Positions 8,048-57,413 of a stretch of DNA of 64,000 nucleotides are shown piece by piece. This DNA comes from Candidatus Kapaibacterium sp. (GTDB taxonomy: Bacteria > Bacteroidota > Ignavibacteria > Kapaibacteriales > Kapaibacteriaceae), in NCBI GenBank assembly GCA_022842685.1, contig JALHPC010000005.1, forward strand, positions 20,548 through 84,547. Direction: 5' to 3'. Under the pieces are notes generated by a model. It did no database searches, had not been told where the DNA came from, and saw only the letters and a list, made by a program, of their open reading frames with translations. The first letter of the stretch is position 1; each line of letters starts with the position of its first letter. Position numbers and translations under genes: made by a program.

Positions 8048-9037
8048 ATGAGCTACGTATCTCTTCCGGTTCTCGGCCAGTCGCACGCAGCCCCTTTCAA
8101 TTGGCAGACGTGGTATGAAGATGTGGGTGGGCGTACGATTTCAATACCTGAGGCCGATGCATGGATGAGGGCGATTGTCGAAGATCAAGTACCCAGGTTC
8201 GACGGCCGAGTAGCCCCCATGCAGCAGCACTTTGCTACGCCTCGTGAAGCAGCAGACTGGGTGAAGGCTTCGGCGAAATCCGACATCGTAGGTATATGCA
8301 GAGTTGAGGCCGCGGACGTCTACGCTGGGCGTTCTGTCGATGCTCAATATGCCATTGTGCTTGGTTCTCGGATGCGCTACGAGCACTTTGTTGAAGTACC
8401 TTCGGAACAGGCGGCCGTTGAGTGTTTGCGAGTGTATCATCAGCTAGGCGAGGAAGTCATTGCCCTTGCCAATGCCATTCGAGCCATTGGGCACGCCTGT
8501 ACGGTAGAGCATCCGCTGGGAGATTCTTCAGTGATGCACATTCCGCTAGCCCTCAAGGCGGGTTTTGGCGAACTGGGGCGCCACGGTAGTATTATCCATC
8601 CCACCTTTGGACCACTTTTCCGCATTGGCAGCGTGTTAACGAATCTCGAGATGGCGATTGATGATCCTGTTGACGCAGGCATCGGCGCCTTCTGTGATCG
8701 GTGCAAGGCATGCCGTCAGTTTTGTCCACCCGACGCAATTCCCGACAGTCGATTCGACGACGGCATCGTCGACCACACAGGTCGACCTCGATATGTTGTC
8801 GACACAGGCAAGTGTTTCCCCTATTTTGCCCGACAGAACTACTGTTCTGCTTGTTTGGCAGTGTGCGCGTGGGCTCGCAAGTCATGGGCAGTAGGCCTTG
8901 ACGGACAGCCACTACCCTTTCCTTCGGTACCATTTGGAACAACTCCTCCGCCGCTATCTCAACGCGTGGAACACCATTCGTACCCTCAGATTCGACGTTC
9001 CGAGGCGTCGCCTCATCACCGAAGCAAACAGAAGTAG
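8048..9037 (+). CDS. 4Fe-4S double-cluster protein, epoxyqueuosine reductase (QueG) / reductive-dehalogenase-like
   Basis: Two ferredoxin motifs CDRCKACRQFCP and C..CSACLAVC preceded by a GSxxxxxxGxxxRIGSVLT segment resembling QueG; sits next to a tRNA gene. Confidence 0.5.
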   Translation: MSYVSLPVLGQSHAAPFNWQTWYEDVGGRTISIPEADAWMRAIVEDQVPRFDGRVAPMQQHFATPREAADWVKASAKSDIVGICRVEAADVYAGRSVDAQYAIVLGSRMRYEHFVEVPSEQAAVECLRVYHQLGEEVIALANAIRAIGHACTVEHPLGDSSVMHIPLALKAGFGELGRHGSIIHPTFGPLFRIGSVLTNLEMAIDDPVDAGIGAFCDRCKACRQFCPPDAIPDSRFDDGIVDHTGRPRYVVDTGKCFPYFARQNYCSACLAVCAWARKSWAVGLDGQPLPFPSVPFGTTPPPLSQRVEHHSYPQIRRSEASPHHRSKQK

Positions 9038-19089: not shown

Positions 19090-21024
19090 GTGAGCACAGC
19101 CCATTCCTTGGTTGACCGGCTTATCGCTGCTGCTGAATCGCTGGACCTGCCAGCATCCGGCCCGGTATGTCTTGCCGTGAGTGGAGGCCTCGATTCTGTG
19201 GCCCTCCTCCACCTGTTCAAGCAATCGCCGTGGCAACATCGGTTACACGTTGTACATGTGCATCATGGCTTGCGTGGAGCCGATGCCGACGCTGACGCGA
19301 CCTTTGTAGAAGGCCTTGCTACTACGCTGGGTGTGCCGTCAACGATTCGCATTGTTAACACACTCGAACGAGCGCAGCGCGATAAGTTGGGCATCGAGGC
19401 GGCGGCACGCGCACTTCGGTACGAAGCACTTGCCGATGTAGCCCATGGTATCTCGAGTTTGGTAGTGGCAACAGCGCACACTGTTAACGATCAAGCCGAG
19501 ACGGTGCTGATGCGCATTCTGCGCGGCACCGGCGTTGATGGTCTGCAAGGTATCCGCCGACGTCGGCTCATTACAGACACCATAGCTTGCATCCGCCCCT
19601 TGCTCGACGTAACTCGCACCGAATTGCTCGACGCTGCTGTGGCATGTGGATGGTCTTGGCGCGAGGATTCGTCGAACGTCGACGTATACTTTCGTCGGAA
19701 TGCAATCCGACATCACGTACTTCCTTCGCTGGTTGAGTTCGGAGGTACAGCCACGATTCATCACTTGGCTCGCCTTGCCGATGCTGCAGCCGATGCTACC
19801 AACATCGTAACCGCCTTCATAGGCGACCACGGCGTTGACACCACATCGTTGGCCCTAGCAACAGAAGTGCTTACGATTCTTCCCGAGTACGCTCAGCGGA
19901 CCCTCATCCGCGCCTGGCTTCGCACGCATGTGCAGAGCAACGTCGACCACACTACGATTCAACGTGTTGCAGCCGCGCTACACAAACAGCCCGGTAGCCA
20001 AATCGATGTTGATGGGCAGTTTATCGTCGTTGTCGATCGTGCCTTCCTCACCCTTGTTCAGCGCAACGAAGCCACCGCCGATGTCGCCGCGTCCGACACT
20101 GTCATTCCCGACGTCGGCACGTATGAAACTCAAAACAGCTCGCTCGTTGTTCAACGCATTGTAGGTTACCCACAGCCTCCATACAACCCTGCTACGGCCT
20201 ACGTCGACGCCGCGAAGGTTGCCTTCCCGTTAACTTGGCGGCGCTGGAACGATGGCGACTCCATGCACGTGCTGAATGGTCCCGGTACGCAGCTCGTGAG
20301 CGACATCCTTACGAACGCCAAGGTACCACCCTCGATTCGACGTTCGGTGCGCGTTGTATCCGACGCCCACGGCATCATTTGGCTTTGCGGTTATCGCCTT
20401 GCTCATCGCGCTCGATGCACCGAGCACACCACTTCGTTCCTCACCCTTCAATGTTCGCCGTCTATGTCCTTACCAACAAATGTTGTACGCGTCTTTGATC
20501 GCACGTTCTCGCCCTTCATCTCGCGCGAAGAAATCGACGCAATGGTATTTTCGATTGCCCAGCGTCTAAACCATGACTATGCCAACCAAGAGATCACCTT
20601 TCTTGTCGTTCTGAATGGGGCAATGGTGTTCGCAAGCGACCTAGCACGACGCGTAACCGTGCCGTGCAGATTCGAGACCATACGTGCTTCGAGCTATGGC
20701 AATGGCATGACGACAAGCGGCACCGTACATGTCGACCAGCCGCTCCCCTCGCTTGCCGGCCGCAACGTCGTGATTGTTGAGGACATCGTAGATTCTGGTC
20801 TAACGATGGAGCGGCTCGTGCGCGATGTGCAAGCGAGCGGAGCACAGAGTGTTGCCATAGCGGCCTTGCTATCGAAGCCCGACGTACACCAGTATCGCGT
20901 CGATGTAACCTATGTGGGCCGAGAGATTGGTAACGACTTTGTGGTGGGCTACGGACTAGATTATGCTGGATATGGGCGCGAGCTCGATGCCATTTGGGTA
21001 GTGTGCAACACAGAGACAGCGTAA
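19090..21024 (+). CDS. tilS: Bifunctional tRNA(Ile)-lysidine synthetase / hypoxanthine-guanine phosphoribosyltransferase fusion
   Basis: N-terminal PP-loop LAVSGGLDSVAL (TilS); C-terminal ~180 aa HPRT with VVIVEDIVDSGLTM PRPP-binding motif; GTG start; followed by ftsH as in the conserved tilS-hpt-ftsH neighbourhood. Confidence 0.85.
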   Translation: MSTAHSLVDRLIAAAESLDLPASGPVCLAVSGGLDSVALLHLFKQSPWQHRLHVVHVHHGLRGADADADATFVEGLATTLGVPSTIRIVNTLERAQRDKLGIEAAARALRYEALADVAHGISSLVVATAHTVNDQAETVLMRILRGTGVDGLQGIRRRRLITDTIACIRPLLDVTRTELLDAAVACGWSWREDSSNVDVYFRRNAIRHHVLPSLVEFGGTATIHHLARLADAAADATNIVTAFIGDHGVDTTSLALATEVLTILPEYAQRTLIRAWLRTHVQSNVDHTTIQRVAAALHKQPGSQIDVDGQFIVVVDRAFLTLVQRNEATADVAASDTVIPDVGTYETQNSSLVVQRIVGYPQPPYNPATAYVDAAKVAFPLTWRRWNDGDSMHVLNGPGTQLVSDILTNAKVPPSIRRSVRVVSDAHGIIWLCGYRLAHRARCTEHTTSFLTLQCSPSMSLPTNVVRVFDRTFSPFISREEIDAMVFSIAQRLNHDYANQEITFLVVLNGAMVFASDLARRVTVPCRFETIRASSYGNGMTTSGTVHVDQPLPSLAGRNVVIVEDIVDSGLTMERLVRDVQASGAQSVAIAALLSKPDVHQYRVDVTYVGREIGNDFVVGYGLDYAGYGRELDAIWVVCNTETA

Positions 21025-23990: not shown

Positions 23991-24737
23991 CTAAAAACCG
24001 CTGCGACGAATCAGGCCTTCGGGCAGGTGTCGAACAACGAACATGATTGGACGCCAGAACCAAGGTACGTAGACAGAACTGCGTGAGCCGTCGAGAATTC
24101 GTTCGATGATTCTTGCTGCTGCTTCAACCGAGCTACTGATGGGCGCGATCTTGCGACCGGCTGTCATTGGTGTTCGAATCACGCCTGGCTTGATCGTAAC
24201 AACGTGGACGCCCGTTCCATGAAGGCGCATACGAAGGCCATCACAAAAGGCGGTAACCGCGGCTTTTGCGGCGCAGTAGGCAAAGAGTGTCTTGCGACCA
24301 CGGTCGCCCGCGACAGACGAGAGAACACCAATGGTCCCTCCACCGTTGGGCAACATGTGAACAGCAAGCGTGTGTACAACGCTAATCACTGACGTGGCAT
24401 TGAGGTGGAAGCCATGTACGACGGCTTCAGCATTGTGCATCAGTTCGTCGTGATCCTGCAGAACGCCTTGGGCTACAAGCGCCAATTCTATGCGGCCAAA
24501 ACGCCGAATCATATCGGCAATCATCACTTCGTGCTTCGTGCAGTCGGCAAGGTCAGCCACCACAACGTCAACGCTCAACGCGCCTCGTGCTTTCAGGTCG
24601 GCAGCAACTGCATCAAGCCGATCGGCCTGCCGACCTACGAGCACCATGGCCACACCGCGTTTGGCGTGGCAACGGGCGACATGTTCGGCAATCGAAGACG
24701 TAGCGGCAAAGTAAACGTAAGCACCAGATGTTGACAT
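23991..24737 (-). CDS. Short-chain dehydrogenase, DprE2-like (decaprenylphosphoryl-2-keto-ribose reductase homologue)
   Basis: SDR YxxxK (YCAAKAAV); C-terminal IKPGVIRTPMTA and ...FVVRHLPEGLIRR closely parallel M. tuberculosis DprE2 (IRPGQVRTRMSA ... MVLRHIPRSIFRK). Confidence 0.75.
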   Translation of the reverse strand: MSTSGAYVYFAATSSIAEHVARCHAKRGVAMVLVGRQADRLDAVAADLKARGALSVDVVVADLADCTKHEVMIADMIRRFGRIELALVAQGVLQDHDELMHNAEAVVHGFHLNATSVISVVHTLAVHMLPNGGGTIGVLSSVAGDRGRKTLFAYCAAKAAVTAFCDGLRMRLHGTGVHVVTIKPGVIRTPMTAGRKIAPISSSVEAAARIIERILDGSRSSVYVPWFWRPIMFVVRHLPEGLIRRSGF

Positions 24738-24884
24738 GCGGTCTGTAAATGGTTCGTATGAGCGTATTCGTGGCCGGAACACCGGGTAAACAACAAATAC
24801 AGCGTGGTGATGGTTTGGCCACAATTTACAGCAAACGCCAGTACATGCTGCGCATAGCTACGGCCTTGGGCTAGTCGCTACGCG

Positions 24885-25209
24885 CACTGCTCACCCCCCC
24901 GGCCCCCCTCTCAAGTTTGAGAGGGGGGTGCCGGTTTGTGTCTATCTTATCTATGCGAAGCATGTCGCTGGCCGCAGGCCGTAACTATGCGAAGCATGTC
25001 GCTGCGGCGAAGCCGCGTCGCTGTTGGCGAAGCCAACGTCGCTATGCCGAAGGCATGTACTATTGGCACTGCTCACCCCCCCGCCCCCTCTCGAGTTCGA
25101 GAGAGGGGGGTGCCGGTTCGTGTCTATCTTAGCTATGCGAAGCATGTCGCTGCGGCGAAGCCAACGTCACTGTTGGCGAAGCCAACGTCGCTATGCCGAA
25201 GGCATGTAC
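24885..25209. repeat. Tandem structured repeat (182-bp unit then a 143-bp unit lacking a 34-bp sub-repeat) rich in GCGAAGC mini-hairpins, each with a 12-bp GC palindrome
   Basis: Seen directly: CACTGCTCACCCCCCC...GGTGCCGGTT(T/C)GTGTCTATCTTA..CTATGCGAAGCATGTCGCTG...GCTATGCCGAAGGCATGTAC repeated twice; palindromes at 24903-24928 (perfect) and 25084-25110 (bulged). Confidence 0.85.
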
Positions 25210-25210
25210 C

Positions 25211-26524
25211 TTACGTCTCCGCCACCCTGCGCCACCACGACGACGACATCTTGGGGTCGATATGCTCACGGAACTGCTCCCACGCAGGGTACATCGCACG
25301 AAAGGTTGGACCCGATACCCGGCAGTCTTTTGCAACGTAAATGCGCCCCCCGGTTTCACGTACTAGTTCGTCGCATCGATCAAGAAGGGCGTACAGCGCT
25401 GCTCCCGTATTTGGAAAGTCGAGGGCCAAGGTGAGTCCAGGCATGGGGAACGATAGCAGTCCGCCAGAGTGGAGCCCACCAAAGGTCTTTAACACCGTTA
25501 AGAACGACGCCATGCGTTCCTTGCGAACCATTGTGAGTATGTCTTCGATGGGTTGACGTCCTGCAGCCGTTGGAATCACACACTGATACTGCACCATTCC
25601 CCGCCTGCCATATAGGCGGTTCCAGTTTTGTAGCATGTCCAAAGGATGAAAGAACGGCCGAAACGAAGCCTCGGCATGCCGTGCCGACCATCGATGTCGT
25701 GCATACCATAGCATGTTGAACATCGACACACTCCATCGCCCAACAAGGCCATTGGGTGCGTCGAAGGGAATGGGTAGGCCTGGCTTGGGCGTCGGCTCCG
25801 TGAGCGAATCGCTCGTCGTAGACCAGTTGCCGCTATGTACAACGCCTCGCCCTCGATGGTGTACCGTGTCAATCCACGCAACAGTGAATTCGTAGCCGGC
25901 GTCGTGCTCGCTTAGCACGTCTACTGCCGATCCAACGCGGTCGATTGGCGTGTTGGTGACAGACACCTTTGCCGAGGCTATGCGCACACATTGTACCTCG
26001 ACCCAAGCAATGATTCCAGTAAGCCCAAGCCCACCAATCGTTGCGCGGAAGAGCTCGCCAGATTCGTCCTGCGTAATAACGCCACGCCCTTCGCTGCGAA
26101 CGAGGCCAATGGCTCGCACATGACATCCAAACGTTCCATGCCGATGATGGTTCTTGCCATGAATGTCGTTGGCCACTGCCCCGCCAAGCGTCACAAACTG
26201 CGTCCCCGGCACAACGGGTATGAACCATCCATGTGGAACTATCAGACCATACAAATCACCTAACACAACGCCGGCGTCGGCTCGCAGAATGCCGGTCTCA
26301 TGATCAAACGAATGGACTCGGTCGAGGGCCGTCATGTCAACAAGTGTTCCGCCATTGTTGAGCGCCGAATCACCGTAACTACGCTGCAGGCCCACTGCCA
26401 GGAACGGTTGTTCCGCCGTAGAAACTCTATCAAGTTCGTCGGCCCATGCCGGTAGCCGTACCCCTGCAGGAGTTGAATCGGGAACCCTTCCCCACGTGTG
26501 ATACGTCCGCATCTCGCCACCCAT
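25211..26524 (-). CDS. FAD-linked oxidase, DprE1-like (decaprenylphosphoryl-ribose 2'-oxidase homologue)
   Basis: FAD_binding_4 N-terminus (GLQRSYGDSALNNGGTLVDM), C-terminus GGRIYVAKDCR...AMYP...DP parallels DprE1 GGRLYTAKDSR...AMYP...DP; start either ATG 26524 (TAATG overlap with upstream gene) or ATG 26512. Confidence 0.75.
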   Translation of the reverse strand: MGGEMRTYHTWGRVPDSTPAGVRLPAWADELDRVSTAEQPFLAVGLQRSYGDSALNNGGTLVDMTALDRVHSFDHETGILRADAGVVLGDLYGLIVPHGWFIPVVPGTQFVTLGGAVANDIHGKNHHRHGTFGCHVRAIGLVRSEGRGVITQDESGELFRATIGGLGLTGIIAWVEVQCVRIASAKVSVTNTPIDRVGSAVDVLSEHDAGYEFTVAWIDTVHHRGRGVVHSGNWSTTSDSLTEPTPKPGLPIPFDAPNGLVGRWSVSMFNMLWYARHRWSARHAEASFRPFFHPLDMLQNWNRLYGRRGMVQYQCVIPTAAGRQPIEDILTMVRKERMASFLTVLKTFGGLHSGGLLSFPMPGLTLALDFPNTGAALYALLDRCDELVRETGGRIYVAKDCRVSGPTFRAMYPAWEQFREHIDPKMSSSWWRRVAET

Positions 26525-44700: not shown

Positions 44701-44890
44701 CCGCCAGTGGCGACAAAACCCACAGACCCTGCCTCAGGCAGGGAGCGCCCCTGGCGGTGGGGTATGTGTTGGTAGCGCAATGTAAGACTGGTAAACTATT
44801 CATGGGTTAACGAAGGAGTATGGCAAGGTGCATAAATTACCCCACCCACCGCCGGAGGCGGTCCCGGCGAGACGCCGGGTCTGTGGGGTT
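44701..44890. other. GC-rich hairpin-dense intergenic block bounded by a 13-bp inverted repeat; candidate small structured RNA or MITE
   Basis: AACCCACAGACCC at 44717-44729 versus GGGTCTGTGGGGTT at 44878-44890; internal hairpins CCCTGCC-TCA-GGCAGGG, CCGCC-GGA-GGCGG, CCCGGCG-AGA-CGCCGGG. Confidence 0.35.
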
Positions 44891-44900
44891 GGTGGTAACT

Positions 44901-45030
44901 GGCCGAAGGCCGTAACTGTGCGAAGCACGTAGCTATGCGAAGCATGTCGCTGGCCGAAGGCCGTAACTGTGCGAAGCACGTAGCTATGCGAAGCACGTCG
45001 CCGTGCGCTTCGCTAACTTCGCGAATGACC
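44901..45030. repeat. Second locus of the GCGAAGC mini-hairpin repeat family (2 x 51-bp tandem plus degenerate tail)
   Basis: GGCCGAAGGCCGTAACTGTGCGAAGCACGTAGCTATGCGAAGCATGTCGCT twice; 44933-44978 matches 24951-24996 at 44 of 46 positions. Confidence 0.85.
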
Positions 45031-54359: not shown

Positions 54360-54539
54360 ATTCTAGCCCCCAACATGTGGATGATTTTGGTTCGATCTCG
54401 CGGCTTTCACGAGTGACCCAATATGCACCGATCAATGCAATCACACACATTGTCGTATGGACCCCACCCTGCAAATTCTCCGTAACTTTCTGTTTGGCAT
54501 TGTGTTATGCGAATCTTAGTACCACCTACCAGCAATCCC

Positions 54540-57413
54540 ATGTCCCATTCGCTTCGCCTTTTCACCACATTGATGTTAAACGCGGTCTTGTGTCTTTCGG
54601 TCTACGCCGAATCCACCGACCATGAAAGCCGGTCGTTTCCTCCTAGTGTTGCGATAGGTACTGCCCTGCCGAATCTAGGACTGCCATACGTAGGCCCAAC
54701 GAACACGGTCATCGTTGTCCGTTACCTAGGATTCTCTTGCACGCACTGCGTTCGTCAGCTTACTTACCTTAACTCGTACGCTCGCCGTCTGTCGGCAGCC
54801 GGCATTCGTGTTGTAGCATTCAGTTCCGACGATGACCGTACCAACATGCGCTTAGTGCAACGGATGGGCTATGACACGTCGGTCATCACGCTTGTATCAG
54901 ACCCGGACAATCGCCGTGCGCGAGCTCTTGACCTCCTTCGCACGGTCGACGGCGAGCAGCTCGACTTGCACGCTGCACTTGTGGTTCGAAATGGTATCCT
55001 AACGTTCGGCATCCTGTCTACACAGCCGTTCATGGATGTTGCCCGCCTGGTTCAGGCAGCCGTCGTTGCACCAACCACGCAACTGCGCAGCGGTAGTTCC
55101 CTTTCGCATTATGTGCAGGGCTCGGTGCGGCCGCGTGTAGTCGCAAGTGCTGCCGATGGAATCGTGAGCCCCGTCGACCTCAAGTTTAATCGGACCCTGC
55201 TTCATAGCAACGACCTATGGGTTGTAACGTCGCCAGATGTCGCCGCAGGCATGGCCATCCTCCACAATGCAGGCACATCCAGCCAGACGATAACGCTCAA
55301 GCGCGACTCGCGAGCCAGCCACTTTATGTATCGTACACAGGCCCTTGCCTTTGGATCGAATGGCACGTTCGCCACTGCCCAAAGTGGCTGGCCTGGTGGC
55401 GGATATCCCAACTACATGTTCATGGGCCCTACGCTTTGGTCATCCGATACTGCCATCTTCGCCTCGCTGTATCAAGATTCTCGAAATCGACTAGCATCAC
55501 ACCTCGACATGTTGCATCAGAGCCCGTGGTGTTTAGGGATTGCTCACGAACGCGACAACGTCTACTGGGTAACAGACGCACGATATAACACTGTTCACCG
55601 CTACGATTTTGCAGACCCCCATGAAGTAGGGGGCACCGACCACCGCGACGGCGTTATTCGTCGGTATACCGAGGCGACAATCACAACATCTGATCGTGAA
55701 CAACCAGCCCATATGGCTATCGACGATGCTACTGGTTGGCTTTACTACGTCGACCCAGGCGCAGGCCGTGTTCAGCGTCTTCGCATTTCGTCGGGCTCTG
55801 TTACCGGCGACTTAGAAATGCCCGAAGAAAGTGGCGAAAACCTAACCGAGTTTTCCGAAGTACGGGGCGCCACCATCGAGACGGCGATCGCCGGCCCTCT
55901 TGGTCAGCCAGTAGGACTTGACATCAGAAACGGAATGATGATTGTCGGCGACCGTGCAACAGGTCGCATTTCGATGTATCGACTGTCGGAAGACCAACCA
56001 GAACTCATTGGAACCGTGGCAACCGGAGCTGGCGAACTCCTTGGCATTACGATTGGTCCTGACGACCACATTTGGTGCGTCGATCGCGCTAATGCTTCAG
56101 TTATTCGTTTGGAAACGGCCGAAGCGGCATACGTCAACGTTACCTCAGACGTGGCGGTAGTTGATACAACAGAAGGGTCCGTCGTGTTTGTCGACCTTGT
56201 CAACGATGGCTCCGCCCCTGTAAGGTTTTCGGTTGAGGCAACCGTCGGCAATGGCTGGCAAGCGCTCATCGAACAGCCGGAAGTTACGGTCGCAGCGCAA
56301 AGTACCGAGCGTATTGGCGTGGTGGTGCGGCGCGACACCTCAGCAATGCCAGCGCAGATGCACATAGGTGCCACCGTTCGGCCGACTGGTGCGGGCGATG
56401 ACGTAGCCACACCGGCAATGGGAAGGGTCGTCCATCTTGTACCATCGAATCTTCGACGTGTACTCGTCCTTGATGGCACCACTGAAGGCTTCGACATCGA
56501 CGAAGCGCTTATGGCAACCAACCGTCAGGGCTATGTAGCGCTGTCCTCTCTCGTCTTCAATCGTGCCGCTGGCAGCTTAGGTAATCTTGAGACGTGCGTT
56601 TGGTTCAGCGGTAGCTTTGGTGACATTAGTGTAACCGACGAAGCCATCATCGCTGACTTACGCCGTAAGAACGTCGACATGCTCATGCTTGCCGATGACC
56701 CCTTCGCAATTCGTGCTGAAGGTGAAAACTCTGCGGCCTTGTTTCAGGTGTTTGGCGCCGTCTTTGGTGGGATTGATGCTCCGACGTCGGTAGATAATGG
56801 GCGACGTGTGTATGATGGCGTTGCCAACGACCCCGTTACCAATGGAATTACACTTGTTGATTGCCAGCTGCCACGATTGGACCATCACCGTGGTGAGTCG
56901 TTTGTGCCGAGTGTGTTTTTCCGCACCGCCGGAACGGGATCTAGCGCAATGCTGCGTAATCGTACAACACAGCGTGCCATGGCTATTCGGTATGTGAGCG
57001 GTGAATACCGAAGCATCGTCATGGGAATCAATCCTGCGCGTATGCTCGATGAACAGCAACGAACAACAATTCTCGACAAATCCATCGAGTGGTTGGAAGG
57101 CGCAGCGCCCAAACCAGTGGACCCAGATCCAACCTCTGTTACCGATCGCGATCAGCAGGCCTTGGCCTTGCACGTACTCGGCAACCCAGTGCGCACGTCG
57201 ACAACGCTGCGAATAACGACGACCGACGTAATGACTGCTGCGTCGGTTGCGCTGTACAGCGTTGGCGGGCAAGAGCTACGTCGGCTGTACGATGGTGTTC
57301 TCGACGGCGTTATGGAGTTTCCTGTGGATGCCACCGCGTTGGCATCTGGCACATACTTCATCATCGTTAGAACTCCTACGTCGATACACCACGTGGCAAT
57401 TATCAAGGACTAA
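54540..57413 (+). CDS. T9SS cargo protein: N-terminal thioredoxin-like (CxxC redoxin) domain, beta-propeller-like repeats, C-terminal Por sorting domain
   Basis: Signal peptide (MSHSLRLFTTLMLNAVLCLSVYA), FSCTHC redox motif in an AhpC/TlpA-like region, repeated YxxDxxxGRV propeller-like blades, C-terminus ...GTYFIIVRTPTSIHHVAIIKD. Confidence 0.65.
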   Translation: MSHSLRLFTTLMLNAVLCLSVYAESTDHESRSFPPSVAIGTALPNLGLPYVGPTNTVIVVRYLGFSCTHCVRQLTYLNSYARRLSAAGIRVVAFSSDDDRTNMRLVQRMGYDTSVITLVSDPDNRRARALDLLRTVDGEQLDLHAALVVRNGILTFGILSTQPFMDVARLVQAAVVAPTTQLRSGSSLSHYVQGSVRPRVVASAADGIVSPVDLKFNRTLLHSNDLWVVTSPDVAAGMAILHNAGTSSQTITLKRDSRASHFMYRTQALAFGSNGTFATAQSGWPGGGYPNYMFMGPTLWSSDTAIFASLYQDSRNRLASHLDMLHQSPWCLGIAHERDNVYWVTDARYNTVHRYDFADPHEVGGTDHRDGVIRRYTEATITTSDREQPAHMAIDDATGWLYYVDPGAGRVQRLRISSGSVTGDLEMPEESGENLTEFSEVRGATIETAIAGPLGQPVGLDIRNGMMIVGDRATGRISMYRLSEDQPELIGTVATGAGELLGITIGPDDHIWCVDRANASVIRLETAEAAYVNVTSDVAVVDTTEGSVVFVDLVNDGSAPVRFSVEATVGNGWQALIEQPEVTVAAQSTERIGVVVRRDTSAMPAQMHIGATVRPTGAGDDVATPAMGRVVHLVPSNLRRVLVLDGTTEGFDIDEALMATNRQGYVALSSLVFNRAAGSLGNLETCVWFSGSFGDISVTDEAIIADLRRKNVDMLMLADDPFAIRAEGENSAALFQVFGAVFGGIDAPTSVDNGRRVYDGVANDPVTNGITLVDCQLPRLDHHRGESFVPSVFFRTAGTGSSAMLRNRTTQRAMAIRYVSGEYRSIVMGINPARMLDEQQRTTILDKSIEWLEGAAPKPVDPDPTSVTDRDQQALALHVLGNPVRTSTTLRITTTDVMTAASVALYSVGGQELRRLYDGVLDGVMEFPVDATALASGTYFIIVRTPTSIHHVAIIKD

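Follow-up and report, generated by a model that had tools for sequence, protein, structure and literature searches.

The spacer between two adjacent genes, dprE1 and dprE2, on a 95-kb contig of Candidatus Kapaibacterium sp. (JALHPC010000005.1, assembly GCA_022842685.1) contains a block of two tandem copies of a dispersed, mosaic and slippage-prone non-coding repeat. The block lies at positions 24885-25209 of the 64,000-nt stretch of DNA that was analysed, here called the window, and the repeat family to which it belongs is confined to a small, uncultured clade of Kapabacteria-like bacteria of the Fibrobacteres-Chlorobi-Bacteroidetes (FCB) group. An earlier note, made from the letters of the window alone, had compared the block to repetitive extragenic palindromic (REP) sequences and bacterial interspersed mosaic elements (BIMEs), and had suggested that it sets mRNA stability or attenuation between the two genes. 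In kind the comparison holds, since the repeat is intergenic, non-coding and a multi-copy mosaic, with a second site in the window and many copies in the metagenome VFQQ01. As to its origin, a selfish or neutral interspersed repeat has probably entered the dprE1-dprE2 spacer, where slippage and recombination resize its arrays and any effect on the transcript is incidental.

Anatomy of the repeat block

The two adjacent units, of 182 and 143 nt, have the coordinates and anatomy that the earlier note gave them (Table 1). Each consists of a head, formed by CACTGCTCACCCCCCC and a GC hairpin, followed by a short linker and an array of small hairpins arranged head-to-tail. The window contains CACTGCTCACCCCCCC at exactly two positions, 24885 and 25067, one in each head. 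The modules of the arrays are 17-21 nt long and are composed of a 6-nt spacer, GTNNCT, and a stem of 4-6 bp whose GNA triloop is closed by a C-G pair. What had been described as a 12-bp GC palindrome is a real structure but a different one, in unit 1 a 26-nt stem-loop (24903-24928) with 12-bp arms, CCCCCCTCTCAA and TTGAGAGGGGGG, that are 100% complementary; DNA folding of this head hairpin gave -16.8 kcal/mol (z = -4.8). The arms of the head hairpin in unit 2 (25081-25094 and 25097-25110) are 14 nt long and match at 86%. The hairpins of unit 1 are, in order, ATGCGAAGCAT, GGCCGCAGGCC, ATGCGAAGCAT, GCGGCGAAGCCGC, GTTGGCGAAGCCAAC and ATGCCGAAGGCAT. The three to five GAA-triloop hairpins described per unit are present, except that one loop is GCA and that unit 1 has six hairpins.

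The 34-nt difference in length between the units corresponds to exactly two modules (gtcgct-GGCCGCAGGCC-gtaact-ATGCGAAGCAT). The proposal that this difference arose by slippage or expansion is borne out: the difference is a product of slippage or recombination involving two modules, unit 2 contains a chimeric module, and module number varies between strains. The repeat is also longer than had been noted, and reaches leftwards to 24843, leaving 105 nt of unique sequence beside dprE2. The leftmost part consists of two degenerate modules, which form an inverted repeat with unit 1 (32 nt, 84% complementary) and are able to pair with its modules across the head, in a helix seen in both RNA folds. 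Their orientation and position are those of the small sense-oriented arrays in relatives with 69-71% DprE1 identity, and they would represent an older layer than the composite units.

The heptamer GCGAAGC occurs 38 times in the window, compared to 15.6 +/- 3.6 times in shuffled sequences (a 2.4-fold excess), and seven of the 38 occurrences are inside the block. Perfect GAA hairpins with a stem of at least 4 bp cluster at only two places in the window. RNA folding of both strands, as the earlier note had suggested, gave -203.6 kcal/mol (z = -4.6) for the minus strand and -215.8 kcal/mol (z = -5.9) for the plus strand. The possibility that the block is part of a coding sequence was rejected, with modules of 17, 19 or 21 nt in a number that varies between strains.

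Constraint on the module hairpins

Module bodies, as delimited by the spacers, were perfectly paired in ~75 of ~80 instances of the family. Across 15 distinct cores 96.7% of the cells were paired, a figure that is inflated because the cores were partly picked as hairpins, and three of the four pairs have changed on both sides. The covariation score was 0.795, as compared to 0.168 in shuffles, none of which (0 of 500) reached the observed value, and the score collapsed when the partners were slid. The loops of 88 perfectly paired modules were GAA (70), GCA (14) or GTA (4), all closed by C-G. In these modules neither the closing pair nor the first and third bases of the loop varied, and the same stems were found with different middle bases; one imperfect module, GTGCGCAACAC, has a broken closing pair. 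At least six independent changes of the middle base were counted, against none at the neighbouring positions (P ~0.001 under equal rates).

The perfectly paired modules therefore have the C-G closing pair on a G-N-A triloop that defines the d(GCGNAGC) motif; across the family the core is C-GNA-G with N free, and GCGAAGC is the commonest core. This motif is described as an extraordinarily stable mini-hairpin in DNA, with a much less stable RNA version (PMC13037366 and PMC3201870, excerpts), and tandem copies bind single-stranded DNA-binding protein (SSB) poorly (PMC13037366, excerpt). The invariant C-G..A-G core suggests that the GNA strand of single-stranded DNA is under constraint. Loop conservation is equal on both strands, as the complement, C-UNC-G, is conserved by necessity. 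Nearest-neighbour DNA folding of single modules yielded energies between -4 and -6 kcal/mol, with weak z-scores and no difference between the strands, in models that include no bonus for GNA loops, and the G-T wobbles among the imperfect modules, one on the GNA strand and two on the other, are too few to weigh. The 5' flanks of the modules were GTCGCT (32), GTAACT (20), GTGACT (5), GTATCT (4), GTTACT (4), GTCACT (3) and GTAGCT (3).

A second site and further copies in related metagenomes

The 46-nt core that the earlier note had proposed for a genome-wide search is found at 24951 and at 44933 in the window, with none expected by chance. The latter position belongs to a second site of the family, at 44718-45015, and no further copy was found in the window beyond these two sites. 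The second site lies between a UPF0102-like gene, named by its position and by a Pfam match of the gene at locus L165, and a 141-aa membrane open reading frame (ORF), and 10 nt separate the end of its array from the start codon of the latter (ATG, 45025). Its array carries the same modules as the block but follows a different palindromic head, here called head 2. The two inverted copies of head 2 in the window enclose ~80 nt that hold an AAGGAG-N3-ATG sequence and a 5-codon ORF.

Uniqueness is likewise excluded by the copies in VFQQ01, a metagenome obtained by shotgun sequencing at a copper-mine site in the Philippines (PMC7744130). A 20-mer common to five modules, CTATGCGAAGCATGTCGCTG, matched eight VFQQ01 contigs, on which at least 13 heads and at least 15 arrays were found. 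The profile of the head seen in the block (head 1) identified two copies in the window and 13 in the VFQQ01 loci, some of them without arrays. The full architecture in VFQQ01 is head 1, a (GTGYTC)n tract, TGTGTCTACCT, a recurrent block of modules (ATGC, GCGGC, GTTGGC, ATGCC) and a variable tail of modules. The tract is a hexamer microsatellite between head 1 and the array, with 20.3 copies at L122 9464-9585 and another example at L119 130-310, and only a vestige of it is left in the window (24935-24952). Head 2 was found in 14 copies (in the window and at loci L108 and L120-L125), and its 7-bp hairpin has compensatory variants, CCCTGCG..CGCAGGG and CCCTGCC..GGCAGGG. The parts are arranged as a mosaic, with solo heads, headless arrays and combinations of head 2 with an array, and tandem composite units are also present in L119 and L125.

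Members of the family are present in independent assemblies from NCBI, ENA, JGI and Logan. A scan of genome contigs with the pattern GCGAAGC-N(2-4)-GTMRCT-N(2-4)-GCGAAGC, which is too loose to be specific, gave 105 single chance matches in unrelated phyla and no array locus. The same pattern in viral contigs gave 21 matches, all coincidental and mostly in one conserved phage coding region, and no link to viruses was found.

Variation between strains and species

Exact look-ups of the GH57 and UbiA proteins encoded in the window returned no contig, and close relatives were reached through members of their clusters. In those recovered with 98% DprE1 identity all contigs end 50-200 nt past the dprE1 stop codon, and 10 of 10 contigs shown with the identical Opp permease terminate inside the array of the second site. 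Such endings inside both window arrays are the effect that a multi-copy repeat has on short-read assemblies. At the dprE1 site head 1 is replaced in the 98% relative by 1.5 copies of head 2, which are accompanied by five modules; this relative shares with the window only GTACC and the two modules nearest dprE1. The left junction, from 24738 to ~24905, was reproduced exactly on an independent contig. At the second site the array has from two to at least six modules, in differing order, beside identical permease proteins. The comparison of related strains that the earlier note had called for thus showed variation in both the number and the order of modules next to identical flanking proteins. 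Together, the chimeric module and the differences in module number from strain to strain confirm ongoing expansion and contraction.

At locus L118 (1-40), where the DprE2 protein and the leader are identical to those of the window, the 5' arm of the head reads CCCCCCACGC, compared to CCCCCCTCTC in the window (24885-24925). The four adjacent differences suggest a replacement from another copy of the head; a compensatory change was dropped as an explanation, the 3' arm being off the contig.

With the same gene order, the dprE1-dprE2 spacer measures 473 nt in the window, 132 nt in a relative with 71% DprE1 identity, 205 nt in one with 69% and 5 nt in one with 56%. In both the 71% and the 69% species this spacer holds a small array that is oppositely oriented. 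The array in the 69% species comprises four small modules that run in the sense of the operon, opposite to the window composites, with spacers GTCCT or GTCAT and with units that include the 7-nt GCGCAGC and GTGCAGC. Two inverted arrays of 12-nt units were found beside head 2 at L165 900-1300 (JGI Ga0484959_000719), apparently from the same species. The units there and at L128 4942-4999 consist of GTCGT or GTCAT and a 7-nt GCAAAGC, GTGCAGC or GCGCAGC with 2-bp stems. This sister-species version of the array points to species-specific homogenisation of the spacers. The inverted relic in the window (24843-24874) matches the older sense layer. Taken together, these comparisons indicate that the dprE1-dprE2 spacer has been colonised repeatedly.

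Flanking genes and other reading frames

The genes on either side of the block are true homologues of dprE1 and dprE2. The dprE1 product matches mycobacterial DprE1 structures (E = 7e-78), and the dprE2 product matches the DprE2 of the DprE1-DprE2 complex 21gq (E = 1e-29). Genes for a UbiA prenyltransferase and a GH57 enzyme are located farther upstream of dprE1. With dprE2 started at the ATG at 24737, the gap to dprE1 is 473 nt (24738-25210), where the earlier note had given 470 bp. The dprE1 stop codon, TAA, occupies 25213-25211, and the first hairpin of the element is 5 nt away. As the two genes run on the minus strand, their mRNA would carry C-UUC-G loops and not GCGAAGC.

The unique leader upstream of dprE2 is conserved in the 69-71% relatives, which share ACAATTTACAGCAAACG and ACACCRGG; the 56% relative, with 5 nt between the two genes, lacks it. 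No promoter was found on the minus strand of the leader in a scan limited to the sigma-70 type. The leader could carry dprE2's own promoter, and may be an internal promoter or a 5' untranslated region (UTR) gained before the repeats.

Table 1. Positions of the repeat, its parts and the flanking features in the window.
Feature	Position	Strand	Details
dprE2 homologue	23991-24737	-	short-chain reductase, 248 aa; Pfam adh_short; exact 248-aa product on record
Leader upstream of dprE2	24738-24842	-	unique, outside the repeat; compared in the window, L128 and L131
Two degenerate modules	24843-24884 (modules 24843-24874)	-	minus-strand reading GCCCAAGGCC-GTAGCT-ATGCGCAGCAT-GTAC
Composite unit 1	24885-25066	+	182 nt; six modules at 24953-25056
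Unit 1 head	24885-24934	+	family profile E = 7e-21
Unit 1 linker	24935-24952	+	TTTGTGTCTATCTTATCT; position of the (GTGYTC)n tract in other copies
Unit 1 tail	25057-25066	+	GTACTATTGG
Composite unit 2	25067-25209	+	143 nt; four modules, three of them perfect hairpins and one chimeric (GCGGCGAAGCCAAC)
Unit 2 head	25067-25116	+	CACTGCTCACCCCCCC, hairpin, then TGCCGG; family profile E = 1.7e-15
Unit 2 linker	25117-25134	+	
Unit 2 modules	25135-25145; 25152-25165; 25172-25186; 25193-25205	+	ATGCGAAGCAT; chimeric GCGGCGAAGCCAAC; GTTGGCGAAGCCAAC; ATGCCGAAGGCAT
Unit 2 tail	25206-25209	+	GTAC
dprE1 homologue	25211-26524	-	FAD oxidase, 437 aa; Pfam FAD_binding_4; 437-aa gene also called in relatives
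Second site	44718-45015	+	array 44895-45015
Inverted copy of head 2	44718-44762	-	
Head 2	44840-44895	+	ACCGCCGGAGGCGGT-CCCGGCGAGACGCCGGG-TCTGTGGGG
Second-site modules	44901-44994	+	six, then a degenerate inverted one at ~45003-45013

Three other ORFs in the window, all on the plus strand, were also noted. A single 644-aa ORF at 19090-21024, directly upstream of ftsH, has matches to the N- and C-terminal domains of TilS as well as to hypoxanthine phosphoribosyltransferase. In relatives two separate genes, of 190 aa and 454-460 aa, are found at this position, and the long ORF is either a fusion or the result of a missed stop or start. A 968-aa ORF at 54507-57413 has a weak N-terminal Redoxin/AhpC-TSA domain and no NCBIfam match, and a 329-aa ORF at 8048-9037 resembles the reductive dehalogenase and QueG families with scores below the threshold. 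As to the host, RelA shares 76% identity with the RelA of Candidatus Kapaibacterium thiocyanatum, the remaining named neighbours belong to Bacteroidota and Ignavibacteria, and the long form of IspG is in line with the FCB group.

Comparison with known repeat families

The repeat resembles the REPs and BIMEs of Enterobacteria and Pseudomonas, which are short, GC-rich, extragenic stem-loops that are present in many copies and form mosaic clusters with other motifs. Like them, it is often located just past stop codons, varies between strains, breaks assemblies and has hairpins that are kept by compensatory changes. The family is high-copy, dispersed and extragenic, with all sites checked being intergenic, and the two heads, the (GTGYTC)n tract and the modules occur in various combinations, as in the BIME mosaics. 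However, the stems are 4-6 bp long here as compared to 6-13 bp in REPs, the loop is a fixed GNA triloop, and the conserved GTAG tag is missing, the flank being GT-NN-CT with GTAG itself in 3 of ~70 cases. Unlike the REPs in BIMEs, the modules are all arranged head-to-tail. Modular intergenic repeats with variable tandem units are also known as the pneumococcal BOX elements, boxA-(boxB)n-boxC, and as mycobacterial interspersed repetitive units (MIRUs). BOX and MIRU units are larger (45-100 bp) and unrelated in sequence, and MIRUs carry small ORFs that couple translation, whereas hairpin modules of 17-21 nt cannot couple translation in this way.

Several other classes were considered and rejected. 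The composite is not a miniature inverted-repeat transposable element, as its ends, GCACTGCTCA... and ...GCATGTAC, do not form an inverted repeat and seven junctions showed no target duplication; only the head has short inverted termini, GGCAC/GTGCC. It is not a CRISPR array, in which repeats of 24-48 nt alternate with unique spacers of about the same length, given a constant part of 6 nt and 11-15-nt "spacers" that are seven recurring palindromes. No intrinsic terminator was identified on either strand of 24738-25210, the head hairpin on the mRNA strand being followed by CCGGGGGGG. In a search of Rfam, no match reached the gathering threshold except tRNAs elsewhere; the best scores below the threshold were 18-19 bits, against cut-offs of 71-74, and the second site gave none.

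More specific comparisons can be made with two tagged groups of REPs. Members of the GTAG superfamily carry an unpaired GTAG or close variant at one end in more than 90% of cases and occur mostly as inverted dimers, either head-to-head or tail-to-tail, and REPs in BIMEs alternate in orientation, head-to-tail dimers being rare (PMC3733652, excerpt). In the Kapabacteria-like repeat only GT..CT is constant in the module flanks, the arrays are unidirectional, and an inverted arrangement exists only between whole arrays. The stems of 4, 5 or 6 bp with a 3-nt loop overlap only with the smallest members of the superfamily, where stems measure 6-13 bp and 5 bp in the smallest family. That family, the GTAG-1 REPs of the betaproteobacterium Thauera sp. 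MZ1T (Di Nocera et al., 2013; PMC3733652, excerpt), has the smallest stems described, a dinucleotide between tag and stem and a mostly tandem or clustered arrangement; it was retrieved from a tandem-repeat database and lies beside polysaccharide gene clusters. The comparison is by description only: GTAG is kept in Thauera, not here, and the excerpt of PMC3733652 mentions neither a head palindrome nor a hexamer tract. These 5-bp-stem arrays are the nearest precedent. REPs tagged with CGTC are reported from Chlorobi, Bacteroidetes and others, with no dedicated transposase known, and have 8-9-bp stems that begin with AT, 4-5-nt loops, a CCA tail and mostly head-to-head dimers (PMC3733652, excerpt). 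The likeness to these lies in the FCB-group host and in the (C/T)GTC that follows about half of the modules, as in GTCGCT. However, (C/T)GTC comes only after GTC-type spacers, the stems are 4-6 bp, the loops 3 nt, and there is no CCA tail. Among natural cases of d(GCGNAGC), the excerpt of PMC13037366 names phage single-stranded DNA origins, ssiA and N4 promoters, and no genome-wide tandem repeat.

Origin of the block and alternative explanations

A full copy of the repeat comprises a ~55-nt head (GCACTGCTCACCCCCCC and a 12-bp GC hairpin), a (GTGYTC)n hexamer microsatellite of 0 to ~20 units, 2-12 head-to-tail modules and a GTAC tail. In the selfish or neutral scenario, which we consider probable, insertion or recombination would have brought such copies into the spacer in at least two layers, old sense modules and then antisense composites. 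Their length would change by slipped-strand mispairing and unequal recombination among near-identical modules, and they would persist as a REP/BIME-like element and not as a dedicated regulator. The minus-strand mRNA would contain a string of C-UUC-G hairpins, from 5 nt past the dprE1 stop codon, and two strong GC hairpins, which could incidentally block 3'-exonucleases or uncouple the cistrons, as REPs do in E. coli. The GNA strand could be constrained as single-stranded DNA by, for example, recognition by a hairpin-binding HUH enzyme similar to the REP-associated tyrosine transposases (RAYTs).

Several observations weigh against this scenario. Neither a RAYT nor another transposase was found among the scanned ORFs or the genes tabulated for the retrieved loci (two unannotated window ORFs have no Pfam match), and there were no terminal inverted repeats or target duplications at the junctions, so that mobility is deduced from the distribution alone. 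The clade sequence covered amounts to ~250 kb, and a figure of ~100 loci genome-wide is an extrapolation from it. The exact count of units and modules on this contig may reflect a collapse of repeats in the assembly, and every other assembly breaks at the block, which leaves no independent check on the count. A constraint on C-UNC-G could also act at the level of RNA. Finally, the stop-adjacent arrays are all antisense (4 of 4), with the tail 4-11 nt from the stop codon. This might mark selection for a function in the 3' UTR rather than neutrality, but the hint is too weak to interpret.

The uniform orientation of the stop-adjacent arrays also speaks for a selected intercistronic regulator, kept to set the relative expression of dprE1 and dprE2 through mRNA stability, attenuation or stop-proximal stalling of ribosomes, as do the stable minus-strand fold and the start of the element 5 nt past the dprE1 stop codon. 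There are parallels in E. coli, where REPs stabilise upstream mRNA and, near a stop codon, can lower translation. Since DprE1 and DprE2 are partners in a complex (PDB 21gq), their stoichiometry plausibly matters. We nevertheless find such a regulator unlikely: the architecture differs even in the 98% relative, which has head 2 and not head 1, the orientation is reversed in the same spacer of another species, and the 56% relative manages with a 5-nt gap. Moreover, the same family is located upstream of unrelated genes and in divergent spacers, the mRNA strand of the element has no terminator-like site, and the conserved leader suggests that dprE2 may have its own start signals. Any effect of the block on the transcript is more likely to be incidental than designed. 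No more probable, in our estimate, is a role in DNA structure, with the mini-hairpins on single-stranded or supercoiled DNA providing sites for protein binding or topology (gyrase, IHF or Pol I, as in BIMEs) or as SSB-excluding priming sites (as in phage G4 and ssiA). The core does follow the d(GCGNAGC) rule with only the middle base of the loop free, the mini-hairpin has a far higher stability in DNA than in RNA and SSB binds only weakly to its tandem copies (PMC13037366, excerpt), orientation relative to transcription is not fixed, and the 7-nt GCGCAGC and GTGCAGC units of the related species, with 2-bp stems, would be stable only as DNA mini-hairpins. Yet orientation is inconsistent with respect to local GC skew (five negative, four positive, on an uninformative 10-kb scale), a hypervariable number of modules is hard to fit with a precise architectural role, and many units in the related species break the rule with AAA loops or T-G closing pairs.

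The d(C-GNA-G) core also enters a more far-reaching idea, which we regard as doubtful though less so than either of these functional roles, namely that the repeats are an undescribed class of interspersed repeat built from such units in hypervariable head-to-tail arrays, and maintained and spread by a mechanism that reads hairpins in single-stranded DNA, either a dedicated enzyme of the HUH/Y1 type or replication slippage driven by the hairpins. By far the least credible are two further explanations. In one, the block is a small-RNA gene or a promoter/terminator cassette, with the head hairpin and TGCCGGTTTGTGT as a plus-strand terminator or with a structured non-coding RNA. The stability of the plus-strand fold and the T/G-rich tract after the head hairpin in full-length copies are in line with this, but there is no Rfam match, a scan for sigma-70 promoters and terminators found no such site inside the element, no plus-strand gene lies upstream to be terminated, and the strains differ more in length and composition than would fit a defined RNA. 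In the other, which we likewise judge very improbable, the tandem duplication and the module counts are artefacts of mis-assembled repeats. All other assemblies break at the block, and two VFQQ01 contigs from different loci (the tail of L106/L127, and L134 1-85) share ~85 nt beyond head 2 (agaatgtgttacctatgtctcc...) at their ends; these shared ends reflect ambiguity of the assembly graph at the repeat, and architectures at contig ends are therefore not trustworthy. However, the family recurs in the independent assemblies from four sources, the left junction is exact on an independent contig, and tandem composite units are likewise present in L119 and L125. We retain the selfish or neutral repeat as the preferred explanation.

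Significance of the repeat family

Literature searches returned no description of such repeats in Kapabacteria, and the block and its relatives document a REP/BIME-like repeat system in this group. The repeat explains why metagenome assemblies of the clade break at fixed loci. As variable-number tandem repeat-like markers, the arrays could separate strains with identical neighbouring proteins. In the dprE1-dprE2 spacer the insertion splits a gene pair that encodes the partners of a complex, and thereby provides a natural experiment on how much intercistronic structure is tolerated. The C-GNA-G mini-hairpin has been the subject of 40 years of biophysics and has few natural roles, and arrays of up to twelve units, in which only the neutral loop base is free, offer a natural test bed for whether the stability of DNA hairpins shapes bacterial genomes. 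If the repeats are indeed a new class that spreads through such hairpins, they would represent a natural genome-wide use of a motif that has so far been known from phage origins and nucleic-acid engineering.

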